Of a DNA stretch of 64,000 nt, positions 19,090-50,253 are shown one piece after another (the first letter of the stretch is position 1; every line of letters starts with the position of its first letter). Source of the DNA: a virus (taxonomy: Duplodnaviria; Caudoviricetes). The notes beneath the pieces were generated by a model that saw only the letters and a list, made by a program, of their open reading frames with translations, made no database searches and was not told where the DNA came from. The DNA is taken from the IMG/VR virus record IMGVR_UViG_3300043432_000485, positions 64,001 to 128,000 of that record; one strand, written 5' to 3'. A program made the position numbers and the translations under genes.

Positions 19090-19095
19090 TACACC
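19090..19095 (-). promoter_or_regulatory. GGTGTA element upstream of clpX
   Basis: 9 nt before the ATG at 19080. Confidence 0.55.
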
Positions 19096-24116: not shown

Positions 24117-24446
24117 CTAGAGCGCTCCGTACGAACGATCTTCTGGAGGCAGGATCTCAAGCCCAGCCGGCGTGACGAAATACCCATGCTTGAACCCAGA
24201 CTGCTTCAGCTCGTCCTTGGTCGCGGGTCTCAAAACCCCCTCAAGCACCAAATGCTCTAGCAACTCCTCCACGCGGTCCAGGTCTAGACCACCACGGAGC
24301 CAAAGGGAGATAGGGCCGGCTCTCAGCATCTTGTCGGGTTCCCGACGAATGTGCTGCAGAAGAGAATCGCGCGCCAGTTTAGCCGAAGCCTCATCGCGAA
24401 GATGTGCCAATCTCACCTCACCCTTGATTAAATACAAGGATTTCAT
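24117..24446 (-). CDS. hypothetical protein, possibly winged helix
   Basis: 109 aa; 4-bp overlap with the upstream gene. Confidence 0.55.
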   Translation of the reverse strand: MKSLYLIKGEVRLAHLRDEASAKLARDSLLQHIRREPDKMLRAGPISLWLRGGLDLDRVEELLEHLVLEGVLRPATKDELKQSGFKHGYFVTPAGLEILPPEDRSYGAL

Positions 24447-25585
24447 GACACTACCTCCACCGTTAGACCCGAAACCGGCACGTCTCTAAAACGAAATGCC
24501 TTGGACACCCCCAAATCTAGATAGAGGGTAAGATCGAAACCGGCCGCCACCTCCCAGCGCCCCCGGCGCTCCAGGGACTCACAGACATAGGACTCCTGAT
24601 GGATTCTCAGGTATGGGCCGTCGAACAACATCACAGCCGGGGATTCCTCCACCGGGAGAGTGAGCAGATGGGGGAGGGCCATCGATGTGTCTGGGTCACA
24701 GATCAGCAGAGCATCTGGAAACTCGTCCTCTAGGGTGACTTCTTGGACCGATTGCTGACAGTACGAGAAGCTGGCAACCTGCCGTGCGATGTTCCGGACC
24801 CACTGCGCCCTTACACGTTCCTTCAGTGCCGTGTAAGGATCGTGCTGAAGGTTCAAGGACAACTGATCCGTGATCGGCACAGAGGCGTGAGCAATAATTC
24901 TCAGTTCGTGCCCTGGAGTATCCTGCACAGCTGGGCAACCGGACCCATCGGTATCGATTTGACAGAGCTTCAGGAACTCACCTAGGCGCCCTGGAATCTG
25001 TTCGAGCAACAGCTGAGGCAGCTCGGAGCGCAGCCGATCTGCCAACTGCTTGCGTCCCTTGTAGGTTGCCACCAAGGTTCTGGGGTCTCCCTCTTGCTTC
25101 ATCAGCTCGGTGACAGGGCCGCGTTCCTGTAGCGCCTTAGTGACGCTGGATTCATGTCCTCGATTGAAGTTGGCTTGGACGATCGCGGACTCTATCTCTG
25201 GGCGCAGCCTAGGCGCCGGGGTGACCAGCTGATCGGTCCCCTCTCTCGCTACCGGAGGCGGCTGGTAAAAGGCGTCTTGCGGAACCTCCGCCACCGCGAA
25301 ACCTGTCTCCGCGGACACGATCATGGTCTTGGTCTTGTCCCGTTGAGAGAACTCCTCAGCTAGGAATCTGGCCACCGTAGGCAGGCCTTCTTGTTCCAGC
25401 AAGAACTCAGGGAGGGTCTCCAGCAGCTGCTGGGAAAGCATATCGGTGCTCCACTGTTCAGTGGTGGCACGGTCAAAAACGGATTGGAGTTCTGGGCTAC
25501 AGCTGATAGCGATTCGAGCGGCACGCAAGGACGCCGTGGGCGGGACGGCGAGAGCGGAGGATTGGAGTTCAACTAGGTCGGTCAT
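24443..25585 (-). CDS. hypothetical protein, possible diverged capsid-protein paralogue
   Basis: Start MTDLVEL at 25585; contains LVATYKGRKQLADRL and a beta-rich C-terminus. Confidence 0.55.
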   Translation of the reverse strand: MTDLVELQSSALAVPPTASLRAARIAISCSPELQSVFDRATTEQWSTDMLSQQLLETLPEFLLEQEGLPTVARFLAEEFSQRDKTKTMIVSAETGFAVAEVPQDAFYQPPPVAREGTDQLVTPAPRLRPEIESAIVQANFNRGHESSVTKALQERGPVTELMKQEGDPRTLVATYKGRKQLADRLRSELPQLLLEQIPGRLGEFLKLCQIDTDGSGCPAVQDTPGHELRIIAHASVPITDQLSLNLQHDPYTALKERVRAQWVRNIARQVASFSYCQQSVQEVTLEDEFPDALLICDPDTSMALPHLLTLPVEESPAVMLFDGPYLRIHQESYVCESLERRGRWEVAAGFDLTLYLDLGVSKAFRFRDVPVSGLTVEVVS

Positions 25586-26140: not shown

Positions 26141-27688
26141 TCATACGACTGAGAATCTTCGTTCCTGTCCGCTGGGGTCAGCGGCGAAGCGCGCCCGCAC
26201 CCCATCATCCACGTCCGGGTCATAGCCGATCCACTCCAAAGTCTCGTTGATCTCGGCCACCATGGTTTTCACGATTCGTGGCTTGCGCGCTAGCTCGGCC
26301 GTGAACAGTTCCTCATCGAGCCCGCCCTTTGGGTTCTTGTGGAAGCTGGCGGTCATCGCTGCCTTGACGCATTGCTCGATCTCGCGACCCACCAGAGACT
26401 TGGAAGTCTCAGCTAGGCTGTCCAGGTTGAAGCGAGAGGGCTCTTGCCCGCGCTTCTGGAGATGGATCTTCAGAATGTCGATGCGGTCCTCCTTCGAAGG
26501 CAGGTCGAAGAACCAGCGCTCATCCATGCGGTTCACGAATTCCACGGGGAGGGTCTTGAGGGAGTTGGCAGTCATGGCCATGCAAATCTGAGACTTGGTC
26601 TCCTGCATCCAGGTGGACAAAATACCAATCGCCCTGCTCGCGGTGCCAGCATCTGTGTGGGCGGAAGACTGTCCGCCTGACAAGCTCTTCTCCGCCTCAT
26701 CGATCCACACGATGCAAGGCGCCATAGCCTCTATGACCTTGATGGCCCGATACACGTTGCCCTCGGTATCACCTACACCAGAAGACCGTAGTTTCCCCAT
26801 CTCCAGCTGGATCACGGGGAGCCCCCAGACATTACCCAGCGTCTTGATGGACAGGGATTTTCCGGTGCCCCAGATCCCAACTGCCAAGATACCCTTGGGT
26901 GGCTCCAACCCGAATGCGCGGCCTTCCGAACTCCACGCCGCTTTGGTGAGCAAGGCCCATTCCTTGAAGCGAGAGATACCGCCGATCTCTTGGAATGAGT
27001 ACTCCGACGTATCGATGTACTTGACCAGATTCGTTTTTCTCAGCTGGCGGAATCGATAGGCAGCCAAGAGACGGGGGTCCGCCGACTTCACCTTCATGAA
27101 GGTCTGGATCATGGCGGTTTGAATCTCGAACGATGTCAGTCCCTGGAACAAGGCGTCCGGTTCCTTGGGGGCATCGATCTTGAGGGAGTCACATGTGCTG
27201 GTGACGATCTGGAGAATCTCGTCAGAGCTGAGGCTGGAATCCTGGATCACTTCCGTGTACCGGGTCAGCTTCTCCGGGATCTGTTGCCGGCTACCAACAC
27301 AGATCAGGATCTTCACCGTCTGCTCATCGTTGTGGGCCTGATGCATGATGTTCATGACCCGGCGCTGGACCTGCTCATCTTTCAACCACCGGTCAGGGTC
27401 CGTAATCACGTAGACCTTGCGCTCATGCGGGGTCTCATCCTTGTAGATGGAGATGAGAGCATCGTGGATGTTCACCGTCTTGTTGTCGGTGGGGTGTGCC
27501 TTCTTCTTCCAATCGTCAATCAGGTCAGTCAAAGGGAGCAGTCCGAACGCCGAGTTGTAAACCTTGGCATTCGCGACCTTTTCCTTCAGAGCGTCCCGCA
27601 GCTGCACAAGGAACCGATCTTCCTCCTCGGTGACGAAGTAGATGAGCCGGGTTACCGCTTTCAGATGGAATTTTAGCTCTGGGAACAT
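26141..27688 (-). CDS. Ycf46-like AAA+ ATPase
   Basis: Degenerate N-terminal AAA domain (TEEEDR); GIWGTGKS, IDEAEK and MTANS. Start MFPELK at 27688. Confidence 0.85.
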   Translation of the reverse strand: MFPELKFHLKAVTRLIYFVTEEEDRFLVQLRDALKEKVANAKVYNSAFGLLPLTDLIDDWKKKAHPTDNKTVNIHDALISIYKDETPHERKVYVITDPDRWLKDEQVQRRVMNIMHQAHNDEQTVKILICVGSRQQIPEKLTRYTEVIQDSSLSSDEILQIVTSTCDSLKIDAPKEPDALFQGLTSFEIQTAMIQTFMKVKSADPRLLAAYRFRQLRKTNLVKYIDTSEYSFQEIGGISRFKEWALLTKAAWSSEGRAFGLEPPKGILAVGIWGTGKSLSIKTLGNVWGLPVIQLEMGKLRSSGVGDTEGNVYRAIKVIEAMAPCIVWIDEAEKSLSGGQSSAHTDAGTASRAIGILSTWMQETKSQICMAMTANSLKTLPVEFVNRMDERWFFDLPSKEDRIDILKIHLQKRGQEPSRFNLDSLAETSKSLVGREIEQCVKAAMTASFHKNPKGGLDEELFTAELARKPRIVKTMVAEINETLEWIGYDPDVDDGVRARFAADPSGQERRFSVV

Positions 27689-27697
27689 ACTCATTAC

Positions 27698-27703
27698 TAC
27701 ACC
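27698..27703 (-). promoter_or_regulatory. GGTGTA element
   Basis: 9 nt before the ATG at 27688. Confidence 0.55.
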
Positions 27704-27707
27704 GAAG

Positions 27708-28244
27708 CTATCTGTTCTTGTGGCGGGCCAGATATTCAATTCCGGACTGCAGTACATGAGGATCCTCCTTGGCGGCCCCCAACATCAAATTACAATGTCG
27801 GTGAATCAACCCTCTCACGCACTTTCCACAAGATTTGGATTTATCGCCAGGGCAGCATTTTCTATTGTGATCCACGCAAACTGATTCAGGGCTCACTCCG
27901 CGATTCTCCATTGGTCGGTGGCAAGATGCACACAGTCCGCCTTGCTGCTCCCACATCTGGTCAAACTCTATGTGGTACCTGGCCCATAGCTCATTTCTTC
28001 TGGCACGATCTGGATTAGCAATTTTCCATGCCCTTCTTCTTGCCGAAAACTTCTCAGGGTTAGCGTCCCGCCATTTCTTCGACCTCAAGTTGTTCTTCTC
28101 TGTCTCCGCAGCTGCTCTAGCTATGTTGTCGGAGTTGGTGCACAACTTGCACATTGGCCTAGGAGCATTACCCCTTTTCTTCTGTAGATGAAAATCTGCT
28201 AGGGGCTTAGTCTCCTTACATTTGGTACATTCCTTGACGCTCAT
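27708..28244 (-). CDS. endonuclease VII-like homing endonuclease
   Basis: CTKC..C..C N-terminus; C.SC, VDHNRKCC..CGKCVRGL....CN.MLG. Confidence 0.85.
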   Translation of the reverse strand: MSVKECTKCKETKPLADFHLQKKRGNAPRPMCKLCTNSDNIARAAAETEKNNLRSKKWRDANPEKFSARRRAWKIANPDRARRNELWARYHIEFDQMWEQQGGLCASCHRPMENRGVSPESVCVDHNRKCCPGDKSKSCGKCVRGLIHRHCNLMLGAAKEDPHVLQSGIEYLARHKNR

Positions 28245-28319
28245 GTGATACGCGTTTGATAAAACGATTACGGGTGAGACTTTCGTCCCACCCGTAAGAA
28301 ACAGTGCTATATGGCCGAA

Positions 28320-28646
28320 TTAAGCCATGTGCCACATGAGAATGATGTTGCCCTCTTGATCCGTCTGGCGCTCGTCGATCATCACGCCCTGCTTGGCGCA
28401 CTCGCTCTTGACCACCGCCTCGGAGTAGTACTGGCGAAGCATGCCCAGAGACTCCTTGGTGTGGCCGTGGTCAGAGTCACCGGAGATCATGCCGGTGTTC
28501 AGGTTCAGCACCGCGTTGGCCAAAGCCCCCGACTTGAAGTAGATGCTGTTGCCTTGGACCTGGTGATCGATGCCAGCCATTTGCAGAGCATGGAGGGCGA
28601 TGGCCTTGTCCGTGATGTTGGTTTGATTGGTGATGCGTCGTGACAT
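28320..28646 (-). CDS. DUF1257 (Ycf35-like) protein
   Basis: MS....T.I.D...L..AL pattern, then YY....V..E...QG..I.E, typical of DUF1257; lies next to the Ycf46-like ATPase. Confidence 0.7.
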   Translation of the reverse strand: MSRRITNQTNITDKAIALHALQMAGIDHQVQGNSIYFKSGALANAVLNLNTGMISGDSDHGHTKESLGMLRQYYSEAVVKSECAKQGVMIDERQTDQEGNIILMWHMA

Positions 28647-28686
28647 AGCTGGTACCTTTTCTTTCAGTCGTTGGTTCTTGGGGTTG

Positions 28687-28860
28687 TTACTCTTGGAAGG
28701 TCTCGTGGACCGTATCGCAGTCCGGACCCGTTACGTCCTCGTTGGTCTGAGGACCGAGGTGCGTGGTGAGCTTGAAGACTTCCTTGCAGTCCCCGCCTTC
28801 ACGGTCGAGGACCTCCGTGACGACTTGCCCATCCTTCATGATCGTTGTTTTGCCCTTCAT
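28687..28860 (-). CDS. DUF2997-like small protein (57 aa, not in ORF track)
   Basis: MKGKTTIMKDGQVVTEVLDREGGDCKEVFKLTTHLGPQTNEDVTGPDCDTVHETFQE*; the I..DG.V..EV...G..C pattern, size and position fit DUF2997. Confidence 0.6.
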   Translation of the reverse strand: MKGKTTIMKDGQVVTEVLDREGGDCKEVFKLTTHLGPQTNEDVTGPDCDTVHETFQE

Positions 28861-28914
28861 GGTTTCATTCTCCGGTGAGTGGTTCGAGTAGCGTTCCTTC
28901 CTTACTACACCGAG

Positions 28915-32482: not shown

Positions 32483-32889
32483 GGTTCCCTTACGACAACT
32501 ACGTACACCTCGGAGCGCCAGAGTTTGACGATCTCCGCAGCCATTTGTCCGGGCTCGAACCCAGTGGGTTCGAAGCACCAAGGCATCTTCTTGGAGAAGG
32601 GGCTGCAGTCCTTTCTGTCAAACATCGAGCACGTTTTTTCGTGGGCGCAATGGCGTGCTGCTTGAGGCATTAGCAGCAGCTTCCCCTTTGGGGGCGGTCC
32701 CAACTGGTCAACCAATGGCTTGGTCCAACCGCTTAGGGCGTGGTCCATAACCTCTTTAGTGACTGAGGGGATGTCCATCACCCCTTGCAGTCCACGCCAC
32801 TCTTCCTCCCATTCTCCCGCCACTTCGTAGATCAGATAGAGCTGAATCGTGCCCATCTCCCGACTAGGGATTTGCAGTCGTCTTGGCAC
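32479..32889 (-). CDS. Cys-containing hypothetical protein
   Basis: 136 aa between the primase fragment and the polymerase. Confidence 0.6.
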   Translation of the reverse strand: MPRRLQIPSREMGTIQLYLIYEVAGEWEEEWRGLQGVMDIPSVTKEVMDHALSGWTKPLVDQLGPPPKGKLLLMPQAARHCAHEKTCSMFDRKDCSPFSKKMPWCFEPTGFEPGQMAAEIVKLWRSEVYVVVVREP

Positions 32890-49110: not shown

Positions 49111-49563
49111 TTAGGCGTTCACTCTAAGCGGAACCCGCACCCTTCGAGGGGTGGTTGGGCTGCCCTTTTGGGGCTTGATATGATTCCTGAGTTTCATGCA
49201 GTTCCCTGCAGTTAGCTCCGGGTTGAGCCCTCTGTCGATCTCCAACATCTCAAACTTTTTGGCCGTGAGACCAGTCATCAGGACGTCGTGTGACTTTTCC
49301 GGGGCGCCACTGCCACAAGTGTAAAAATCCACTGCCGCATAACCAATCTCGGGCCACGTGTGAATCGACAGATGGGATTCCTCCAGCACTACTACCCCTG
49401 TCACGCCTTGGGGTACAAAAGGGTGAAAGACCGATGCCACGATGGTCATTTGGGCGGCGCGGGCCGCTTGCTCCATCAGGGTTCGAATCTGGTCAACATC
49501 GTTAAGTGCGTCGAAATTGCATCCGGCGTACTCGACCAGTAGGTGTCTACCATTCGTGTTCAA
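49111..49563 (-). CDS. speH: S-adenosylmethionine decarboxylase proenzyme (SpeH-like)
   Basis: GRHLLVE..GC, HPF.PQGVTGVVVLEESHLSIHTWPE and DFYTCG. Probable TTG start at 49563 after GGAGG. Confidence 0.9.
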   Translation of the reverse strand: MNTNGRHLLVEYAGCNFDALNDVDQIRTLMEQAARAAQMTIVASVFHPFVPQGVTGVVVLEESHLSIHTWPEIGYAAVDFYTCGSGAPEKSHDVLMTGLTAKKFEMLEIDRGLNPELTAGNCMKLRNHIKPQKGSPTTPRRVRVPLRVNA

Positions 49564-49632
49564 CTCACGGGCCTCCAAGTTACAGGGTGAAACGTACAAA
49601 GAGATCAAGGTGCCCGATGAGACGGGGTCCGC

Positions 49633-50253
49633 TTAGTACACCAGAGACCACCCGCCAAAGTACACCCGAGAGGTGTTTGTGTTGGTGAAGCGAAGTTTCG
49701 CTGTAGCCCCTTGGTCGGCCACCGGAATGTGAAGAACGGCCCCACTAGTCGTAGGGTTGTAAGTGGCACCGCTATTGAAGGATACCTCGCACAGAATGTC
49801 ACTGTCAGAGGGGGTCTCCACGTACGTCCTGGAGAACCTCCCATCACTCGGGTCTGAATCTGAGAAGGAGAAGGTCTCCCATAGCACCACGCATTGCGTA
49901 GGACTGAGCCCTAGTGCAAACGATTGAGTGTTGAGCACACCTGACCCAAAGAGGCAAGCAGGCGCGAAGCCACCTCCCGTTGACACGTTAGAGCTGGTTT
50001 CTGTGTCAATCTCAGAGCTATTCAAGCACGCGTCAGCCACTACATTCGTAAAACCTACATACAAGGCTTGAATACCTATCGTCTTGGCAGCCAACAAAGC
50101 AGGCAAGTCCTCGGGGCCTCCGTGAATGGCGCACCCATCCGGAATTCTTACAACCAAGGAACCAGTAGAGGGGGACTCCCCTGAAGGGGCTGGCCTCACA
50201 TCGATGATGGTGCCCGGGGGAGAGAAAGGATCTACTAGATAGTGTGTTGACAT
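49633..50253 (-). CDS. putative virion structural protein
   Basis: 206 aa beta-rich protein directly downstream of the tailspike-like gene. Confidence 0.6.
   Translation of the reverse strand: MSTHYLVDPFSPPGTIIDVRPAPSGESPSTGSLVVRIPDGCAIHGGPEDLPALLAAKTIGIQALYVGFTNVVADACLNSSEIDTETSSNVSTGGGFAPACLFGSGVLNTQSFALGLSPTQCVVLWETFSFSDSDPSDGRFSRTYVETPSDSDILCEVSFNSGATYNPTTSGAVLHIPVADQGATAKLRFTNTNTSRVYFGGWSLVY

Follow-up and report, generated by a model that had tools for sequence, protein, structure and literature searches.

The 64,000-nucleotide window analysed here comprises bases 64001-128000 of the 203-kb IMG/VR virus record IMGVR_UViG_3300043432_000485, which was recovered from a freshwater metagenome and represents an uncultured huge phage with a CheckV completeness of 43%. 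A 57-residue open reading frame (ORF), a DUF1257-like gene, an Endonuclease VII (EndoVII)-like gene and a gene for a Ycf46-like AAA+ ATPase follow one another on the minus strand, in the positions and order given in a preliminary description of the sequence. The locus is probably a divergent huge-phage version of a three-part Ycf46 AAA+/DUF1257/DUF2997 remodelling machine, in which the two small proteins would serve as subunits or cofactors of the ATPase and which is linked to a block of genes headed by a DNA polymerase gene.

Identity of the small proteins and the ATPase

Searches against Pfam placed both small proteins below the curated cut-offs. The 57-residue ORF matched DUF2997 (PF11211) with an E value of 6.6e-4 and 19.9 bits, under the gathering cut-off of 24.1, and the 108-residue ORF matched DUF1257 (PF06868) over its C-terminal 40 residues only, with an E value of 0.028 and 15.1 bits, under the cut-off of 22.2. 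Relatives of the two proteins were gathered from 18 related viral contigs and aligned. Some phage relatives match the Pfam DUF1257 and DUF2997 models better than the window copies do, and the DUF2997 model is matched at E <= 0.1 by 5 of 15 clade members (best 5.4e-5). When 15 phage 108-residue proteins were compared with 15 bona fide DUF1257 sequences by hhalign, the two profiles aligned over 108 columns (97.1%, E 5e-11), and the phage 57-residue family aligned with bona fide DUF2997 over 46 columns (91%, E 1.1e-6). A search of 1.84 billion representatives with the 108-residue profile returned 286 clusters; within a set of 150 made up of the window protein and the 149 best clusters, 14 matched Pfam DUF1257 at E <= 1e-3 (best 5.6e-7) and none matched any other family.

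Hidden Markov models (HMMs) built from the phage families alone retrieved the small neighbours of bacterial Ycf46-type ATPase genes, with the 57-residue family model matching bona fide DUF2997 neighbours at E 9e-7. The bacterial neighbours that were checked are bona fide members by Pfam, five of DUF1257 at 72-103 bits and five of DUF2997 at 44-58 bits. The AlphaFold model of the 108-residue protein is confident (predicted local distance difference test, pLDDT, 91.8), and its best shape match in the ESM Atlas was a cluster that is 98% PF06868 (template-modelling (TM) score 0.80 over 108 residues, root-mean-square deviation (rmsd) 2.6). Atlas features of the 57-residue protein pointed to DUF2997 clusters, at the level of a lead only. 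The phage DUF2997 family has invariant G11, C25 and G36 and contains the hairpin-G-x-x-C-helix core, and in the bona fide alignment G23 and C26 are invariant and G12, G20 and G38 nearly so. The N-terminal MSH/MSR start of DUF1257 is conserved in phage and bona fide members, the phage form being about 20 residues shorter than the bacterial one. Because profile-profile comparison, family HMMs and the fold match agree, the small ORFs are established as real, divergent homologues of DUF2997 and DUF1257 despite their sub-cut-off Pfam scores, and the names first proposed for all three proteins of the triad were correct. Both small genes are under purifying selection, with ratios of nonsynonymous to synonymous substitution (dN/dS) of 0.10 and 0.11 in the pair L010/L011 and a range of 0.1-0.27 for DUF2997. 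No fold could be assigned to the DUF1257 model from solved structures (Foldseek best E 0.09). The best VIA match had a Z score of 6.3 (adaptin appendage, CPSF73/100 C-terminal domain and KA1-type domains, all widespread protein-interaction modules), a level that is common by chance and not diagnostic, and sequence profiles of bona fide DUF1257 and DUF2997 found nothing meaningful in the PDB.

The ATPase matched PF00004 at 72.6 bits and phrog_8638 at E 1e-89. Over residues 1-488 it is about 29-33% identical to 80 cellular proteins, which come from two archaea and a wide range of bacterial phyla. Of three clusters looked up in UniRef, two (Dolichospermum and Streptomyces) have members named "AAA domain-containing protein ycf46". 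A quick LG+G4 tree placed the huge-phage ATPases in a monophyletic group (100) on a stem of 1.24, outside the cyanobacterial Ycf46 clade and at a position among the cellular clades that the tree leaves unresolved. The gene would start at 27694 or, more likely, at 27688, since the resulting 515 residues equal the length of an identical database entry (P0161) and the spacing to the upstream GGTGTA box is then the typical 9 nucleotides. A 538-residue ORF reaching 27757 was rejected as artefactual because its ATG lies further upstream, within the EndoVII gene.

No Pfam family matches the first 235 residues, which were modelled with a pLDDT of 91.6. Foldseek returned at least 500 matches of this part to AAA+ modules at E <= 1e-3, and the best VIA match was Vps4 (Z 12.7, 201 residues aligned, rmsd 3.5). 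YFVTEEEDRF stands at the P-loop position and TD at the Walker B position. Since the first module lacks a P-loop, the protein is a tandem AAA ATPase in which the first module is dead and the second is intact. The second module carries GIWGTGKS, VWIDEAEK, the sensor 1 motif TAN and NRMDE with an invariant R389; the motifs of the classical AAA clade are present, and the best solved relatives are the AAA modules of Cdc48/p97 (E 2e-30). The residue at the hydrophobic or aromatic position of pore loop 1 sets the huge-phage clade (n = 64) apart, being Gly in 51, Ala in 6, Glu in 4, Gln in 2 and Thr in 1, whereas cellular and other members have Leu (16), Tyr (5), Ile (4) or Phe (1); the Corndog pore loop reads KYVGESE. 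From its second region of homology (SRH) the clade has also lost two residues, one of them an arginine. The window ATPase has Gly where polypeptide threading calls for a hydrophobic or aromatic residue. Classical unfoldase-type threading is doubtful because this hydrophobic pore loop is missing, and the divergence hints that the motor of the family may be something other than a simple unfoldase. In three relatives (L147, L148 and L150) an intein lies just after Walker B of the ATPase, with an Intein_splicing match in all three and a LAGLIDADG match in L148 and L150.

Conservation of the triad in phages and bacteria

The proposed survey of phage genomes found the triad to be widespread. Among the viral loci with this ATPase family (n = 78), both small genes were nearby in 54, one in 9 and neither in 15. 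About 40 huge-phage contigs share the six-gene block polA-orf218-DUF2997-DUF1257-AAA-orf461, and the synteny of its first five genes persists to about 30% ATPase identity. By tblastn, the 57-residue DUF2997 homologue is conserved in 38 of the 78 viral loci, and orf218 is syntenic in 44 of them, including distant ones at about 30% AAA identity.

Complete triads were also found in cultured phages, among them Rhizobium phage vB_RleS_L338C (L338C; genes 050, 052 and 053), in which DUF1257 and DUF2997 both score above the Pfam threshold, and Pseudomonas aeruginosa phage PA_L9 (PAL9_71, 74 and 75; DUF1257 24.6 bits, DUF2997 33.2 bits). In Rhodobacter phage RcMenchie, DUF2997 exceeds the threshold and tblastn detects a relative of DUF1257; Aeromonas phage HJ05 has a DUF1257 relative. 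Nearly all triad genes of cultured phages are annotated as hypothetical. In Corndog-type mycobacteriophages the ATPase is present and DUF1257 and DUF2997 are undetectable. A blastn search of the window locus against cultured phages gave zero matches.

In bacteria and archaea, one or both small genes stand beside the ATPase gene on the same strand in 43 of 80 loci from many phyla. The order of the three genes differs between lineages, and the association persists. FGE-sulfatase-like proteins occur at 21 bacterial loci in 10 phyla, and small Fer4_12 radical-SAM proteins at 15 loci in 8 phyla. In at least 10 phyla the bacterial operons are larger and combine up to three Ycf46-type AAA paralogues with DUF1257, DUF2997, FGE-sulfatase-like proteins, an Hsp70-like ATPase and a small radical-SAM protein of the Fer4_12 type (for example loci L061, L092, L094, L101, L104, L043 and L062); a literature search found no paper on these larger operons. 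No FGE-sulfatase, Fer4_12 or Hsp70 gene was found at family level in the phage record, which at 43% completeness does not prove their absence. What the phage has may be the core of the bacterial version, stripped down or put to a new use.

Natural gene fusions join the same partners. In two independent cases DUF1257 is fused to the N-terminus of the ATPase, in P0160 (685 residues, in the same polA context) and P0261 (662 residues), and one viral ORF of 193 residues (L163) fuses DUF1257 to DUF2997. Each fusion was seen on one contig, where read-through or assembly error is possible, so the fusions are only suggestive. Together with an association that is kept despite varying gene order, they suggest that the three proteins work together. 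No longer, fused relatives of the 108-residue protein were found in a set of 5.8 billion sequences, which by the tool's own rating is weak evidence. A complex prediction with DUF1257, DUF2997 and the full ATPase scored 0.00; it was run without controls and speaks neither for nor against binding.

Purifying selection on the small genes, the inteins by Walker B and synteny kept to about 30% ATPase identity all argue that the module is important to the phage. Strong conservation across phages likewise argues for a useful role in infection, as had been suggested from the presence of a complete copy. The further suggestion that this copy offers a tractable model holds for the cultured phages with the triad and not for the uncultured phage of the window.

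Two further genes accompany the triad in the huge-phage block. The product of orf218 is a possible fourth member of the set, judging from its synteny; it has no family match in Pfam or PHROG beyond a chance one to DUF4787 (E 0.008, below cut-off). An orf461 homologue is the constant downstream neighbour of the ATPase gene in the huge-phage clade. Its Atlas entry begins at residue 54 of the query; it has no Pfam or PHROG match, and its Atlas features (0.84) and structures (TM under 0.3) gave no lead. In about 40 phages (L111-L150), the three larger products of the block end in short, conserved, strand-like tails, ..GAK[IV][KR][LI]G(G) in orf218, ..[FL][KRS][VLF][VI]xG in the ATPase (26141-26173 in the window) and ..SG[LV]SVEV[VLI] in orf461 (24443-24480), which may be docking tails. 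Between the ATPase gene and orf461 lies a cysteine-dioxygenase-like gene. Because only L021 among 19 relatives carries a counterpart, this gene is a second variable insert in the block.

Table 1. Features of the locus, in window coordinates
Feature	Position	Strand	Remarks
DNA polymerase I gene (polA), 1025 residues	29504-32581	minus	Heads the conserved block
orf218, Cys-rich and Pro-rich, 218 residues	28915-29571	minus	Between polA and the DUF2997 gene
DUF2997 homologue, 57 residues, divergent huge-phage form	28687-28860	minus	Pfam, hhalign, HMM
DUF1257 (Ycf35-family) homologue, 108 residues	28320-28646	minus	Pfam, hhalign, fold match
Inserted cassette, 617 nucleotides, hairpin and EndoVII gene	27707-28323	no strand	Skipped in the contig of run X4
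GAAA-loop hairpin, 13 bp, followed by a T-rich tail; terminator-like	28268-28297	minus	Inside the cassette
Endonuclease VII-type gene, free-standing, 178 residues, N-terminal zinc-ribbon-like part	27708-28244	minus	PF02945, phrog_2633
GGTGTA box	27698-27703	minus	9 nucleotides ahead of the ATPase ATG at 27688
Ycf46-family tandem AAA+ ATPase, 515 residues (517 if the start is 27694)	26141-27688	minus	PF00004, phrog_8638
N-terminal degenerate AAA+ module, residues 1-235	26990-27694	minus	Model, Foldseek, VIA
Walker A, GIWGTGKS, residues 273-280	26855-26878	minus	Invariant in two ATPase alignments (A5, A8)
Pore loop 1, KLRSSGVGDTE	26762-26794	minus	Gly replaces the hydrophobic/aromatic residue
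Walker B, IVWIDEAEK, residues 328-336	26687-26713	minus	D332 and E333 invariant in alignments
Second region of homology, shortened, FV--NRMDE versus LRKGRFDE	26519-26539	minus	One Arg (R389) kept
ATPase tail V-R-A-R-F, residues 497-501	26198-26212	minus	G[VI]RAR[FY]A conserved in the clade
Cysteine-dioxygenase-like gene, 187 residues	25569-26132	minus	phrog_4786, E 6e-34
orf461 homologue	24443-25441	minus	True start probably near 25441

The endonuclease cassette and the GGTGTA box

The EndoVII ORF matched PF02945 at 47.2 bits, above the cut-off of 23.6, and phrog_2633 at E 4e-23. In its translation, putative metal and catalytic Cys/His motifs can be read (CxxC ... DH ... CxxC ... HCN), and relatives at about 32% identity occur in 283 phage records. 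The preliminary description had the triad interrupted by this gene, and the comparison with relatives bears this out: EndoVII was found at this site in 0 of 96 related viral loci (18 + 78), and an empty site was recovered from an independent freshwater metagenome (run X4), where a contig of 151 nucleotides joins 27706 to 28324 and skips 617 nucleotides. This contig is single and of low depth, with 38 letters on its shorter side and near-identical sequence on both flanks; in it, 64 other letters stand between 27706 and 28324. The EndoVII gene has a GC content of 49% and a third-position GC content (GC3) of 54%, compared with 56-57% and 75-82% for the triad genes, and the spacer before it has a GC content of 47%. 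The slot between the DUF1257 and ATPase genes is variable, holding an unrelated ORF of 93-95 residues in L010 and L011 and being empty in others. That ORF is conserved between these two closest relatives (L010:4710-4991 and L011:4706-4993) and has no Pfam match. The hairpin of the cassette folds at -25.5 kcal/mol (z -4.3) and is not present in the aligned relatives. Among public sequencing runs, none of RNA was listed as containing the locus.

Because the gene is absent from relatives, has a foreign GC3, is skipped in the empty-site contig and lies in a slot that takes other ORFs, it is best read as a free-standing nuclease cassette of the homing type that has recently entered a variable slot between genes. 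It is unrelated to the function of the triad. Four more weakly similar EndoVII/zinc-ribbon loci (five matches) were found in the same phage record, which suggests a family of free-standing nucleases spread through the phage genome; they lie outside or at the edge of the window, at record positions 49392-49781, 193538-194020, 178206-178577 and 153776-153901. Conserved phage genes are frequent targets of selfish elements, and this locus is a repeated target, because it has received both the EndoVII cassette and, in three relatives, the inteins in the ATPase.

The ATPase gene was also said to have its own GGTGTA box, and this box is present. The window has 35 copies of GGTGTA where 18.7 would be expected, and the motif also precedes the ATPase start in the relatives L010, L011 and L021, all of which lack the EndoVII insertion. 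Across the 203-kb record there are 119 copies, often in the form T-C-GGTGTA-G/A. The motif lies within 35 nucleotides before a possible start in 43 of 253 crude genes, with a sharp spacing peak at 9-11 nucleotides (22 genes); examples in the window, besides the box of the ATPase at 27698-27703, are 28906-28911, 32504-32509 and 19090-19095. GGTGTA is associated with gene starts and differs from a Shine-Dalgarno sequence. It may act as a translation signal or as an element of phage promoters that give mRNAs with a short leader or none.

Possible function and comparison with known systems

In the proposed remodelling machine, the first AAA+ module, lacking a P-loop, would presumably be structural or serve for docking, and the second would presumably hydrolyse ATP in a ring, like its Cdc48/FtsH-type relatives. 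ATP hydrolysis is presumed because Walker A, Walker B, sensor 1 and one SRH arginine are kept. DUF1257 and DUF2997 are most likely subunits or cofactors that would form a pair and sit at the N-terminal face of the ATPase. There they may play the part of an N-domain or adaptor, as in Cdc48/p97 or ClpX, and select or gate the remodelled substrate. The client would most plausibly be a protein or complex of replication or of the early-middle programme, because the triad is part of a constant block that begins with the DNA polymerase I gene.

Several points weigh against this proposal. Huge-phage ATPases are without the hydrophobic residue of pore loop 1 (Gly in 51 of 64) and without one SRH arginine. 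The usual bacterial extra genes (FGE-sulfatase-like, Hsp70-like and radical-SAM) were not found in the phage record, and the fusions, at one contig each, could include read-through or assembly errors. Binding in a complex and the ATPase activity of the members are predictions from sequence, models and analogy, as is the formation of a ring. The DUF1257 fold is without an informative solved relative (best Z 6.3), so the adaptor role is drawn by analogy only, and the putative link to replication comes from synteny alone.

A somewhat unlikely alternative is that the module is a conflict device, acting in counter-defence, superinfection exclusion or host takeover and unconnected with replication, with its position beside polA reflecting early or middle timing only. 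The module occurs in phages as well as in many bacteria that are not closely related, its accessory genes vary as is typical of conflict systems, some phages place the ATPase away from polA, and there are weak AAA-level matches to the defence ATPases IetA/IteA and TRIP13. However, searches with PADLOC and NCBIfam returned generic AAA-domain matches only (IetA/IteA, TRIP13 and CDC48), far below the family cut-offs and with no defence-system assignment, and a block that is invariant in about 40 huge-phage contigs and is a target of inteins is more typical of core genes.

It is doubtful that the ATPase acts on the two small proteins as its clients or regulated substrates, since DUF1257 fused to the ATPase N-terminus fits a subunit better than a turnover substrate, and the phage record keeps both small genes under selection with Fer4_12, FGE and Hsp70 genes not found in its sequenced 43%. 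DUF2997 could in this case be a small carrier or modified peptide that the ATPase unfolds, recycles or hands on. Such a role would suit its invariant Cys and two Gly, the Fer4_12 radical-SAM and FGE-sulfatase-like genes that bacterial loci add, and the clustering of duf2997-ycf35 with the ferredoxin gene fed7 in cyanobacteria (PMC4284462).

A more specific proposal, which we regard as unlikely, is a polymerase-linked remodelling machine that would act as a replisome accessory and consist of the ATPase and the two small proteins, possibly joined by orf218 and orf461. Its ring, in which small and basic residues (KLRSSG) would have replaced the hydrophobic pore loops, would serve to load, release or recycle a protein of replication, or would work on a nucleoprotein complex, with no unfolding of polypeptides. 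If this were true, the orphan Ycf46 and Ycf35 families of cyanobacteria and plastids could for the first time be approached mechanistically, through phage genetics.

It is very unlikely that the module reads short V-x-x-R-[FY] peptide tags on unrelated phage proteins, tags that would mimic the C-terminal tail of the ATPase and mark their bearers as its clients. The tail V-R-A-R-F formally fits this pattern and lies in a motif, G[VI]RAR[FY]A, that the clade conserves, and both orf218 and the ATPase end in short basic, hydrophobic strand-like tails. Yet a weight matrix made from 13 tag copies ranks the ATPase tail 554 of 63,281 positions, and V..[RK][FY] is near chance, with 42 seen against about 30 expected by a rough estimate from typical residue frequencies. 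A chance arrangement of small ORFs that are not true DUF2997 and DUF1257 genes has a negligible probability, as the concordance of profile-profile comparison, HMMs, fold and synteny and the purifying selection already contradict it, even with both Pfam scores under the curated cut-offs.

The proposed three-part machine is of wider interest because the conservation of Ycf46, Ycf35 (DUF1257) and DUF2997 reaches from archaea to cyanobacteria and plastids, and the phage copies make the set testable by phage genetics and biochemistry. In dozens of huge phages the three genes form a core block under selection, and now and then they are fused into a single polypeptide; complete copies exist in cultured Pseudomonas, Rhizobium, Rhodobacter and Aeromonas phages. 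Within the library that was searched, five papers name DUF1257 or DUF2997, and the triad and its phage copies are described in none of them. The EndoVII part is ordinary selfish-DNA biology, yet it provides a clean natural pair of insertion and empty site.

The cyanobacterial and plastid Ycf46, Ycf35 and DUF2997 belong to the same three families as the phage proteins, and the ATPases share the two-module architecture at about 29-33% identity. Ycf46 has been described by phenotype and regulation, namely CO2 use, interaction with KaiC and an RpaB/ppGpp-controlled stress operon (PMC13683863). The preliminary description had Ycf35 and Ycf46 as neighbours in cyanobacteria, which is true of paralogues and not of the canonical gene. 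In five cyanobacterial genomes canonical Ycf35 pairs with DUF2997, with no AAA gene within 1.5 kb on each side, whereas a second DUF1257 paralogue directly follows a Ycf46-family AAA paralogue in all five. The canonical pair has the order DUF2997 then DUF1257, as in the phage, and its cluster is listed as duf2997-ycf35-fed7 (PMC4284462). The phage set differs in that its ATPase forms a separate long branch that has lost the pore-loop hydrophobic residue and one SRH arginine, its DUF1257 is shortened by about 20 residues and it has no ferredoxin partner.

The likeness to Cdc48/p97/VAT lies in the stacking of two AAA modules, of which one is catalytically weak, and in partners expected at the N-terminal face. 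Unlike these proteins, the phage ATPase has no P-loop at all in its first module, no double-psi-barrel N-domain and no aromatic pore-loop residue, and DUF1257 and DUF2997 are unrelated to the UBX/Npl4-type cofactors of Cdc48/p97. The EndoVII cassette resembles free-standing homing nucleases and inteins (T4 seg/mob; actinophage Endonuclease VII/HNH) in its intergenic insertion by a conserved gene, and it shares with phage homing nucleases a foreign composition, presence/absence polymorphism and several weakly similar copies per genome. It differs in bringing a terminator-like hairpin into the operon, and homing is here read from the sequence. The sets of cultured phages (L338C, the RcMenchie group, the PA_L9/SM1 group and HJ05) are not beside polA and have the order AAA-x-DUF1257-DUF2997, with one or two extra genes between. 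They contain the same triad as the window, with ATPases 26-29% identical to that of the window, small proteins above the Pfam threshold and a normal hydrophobic or aromatic pore loop.

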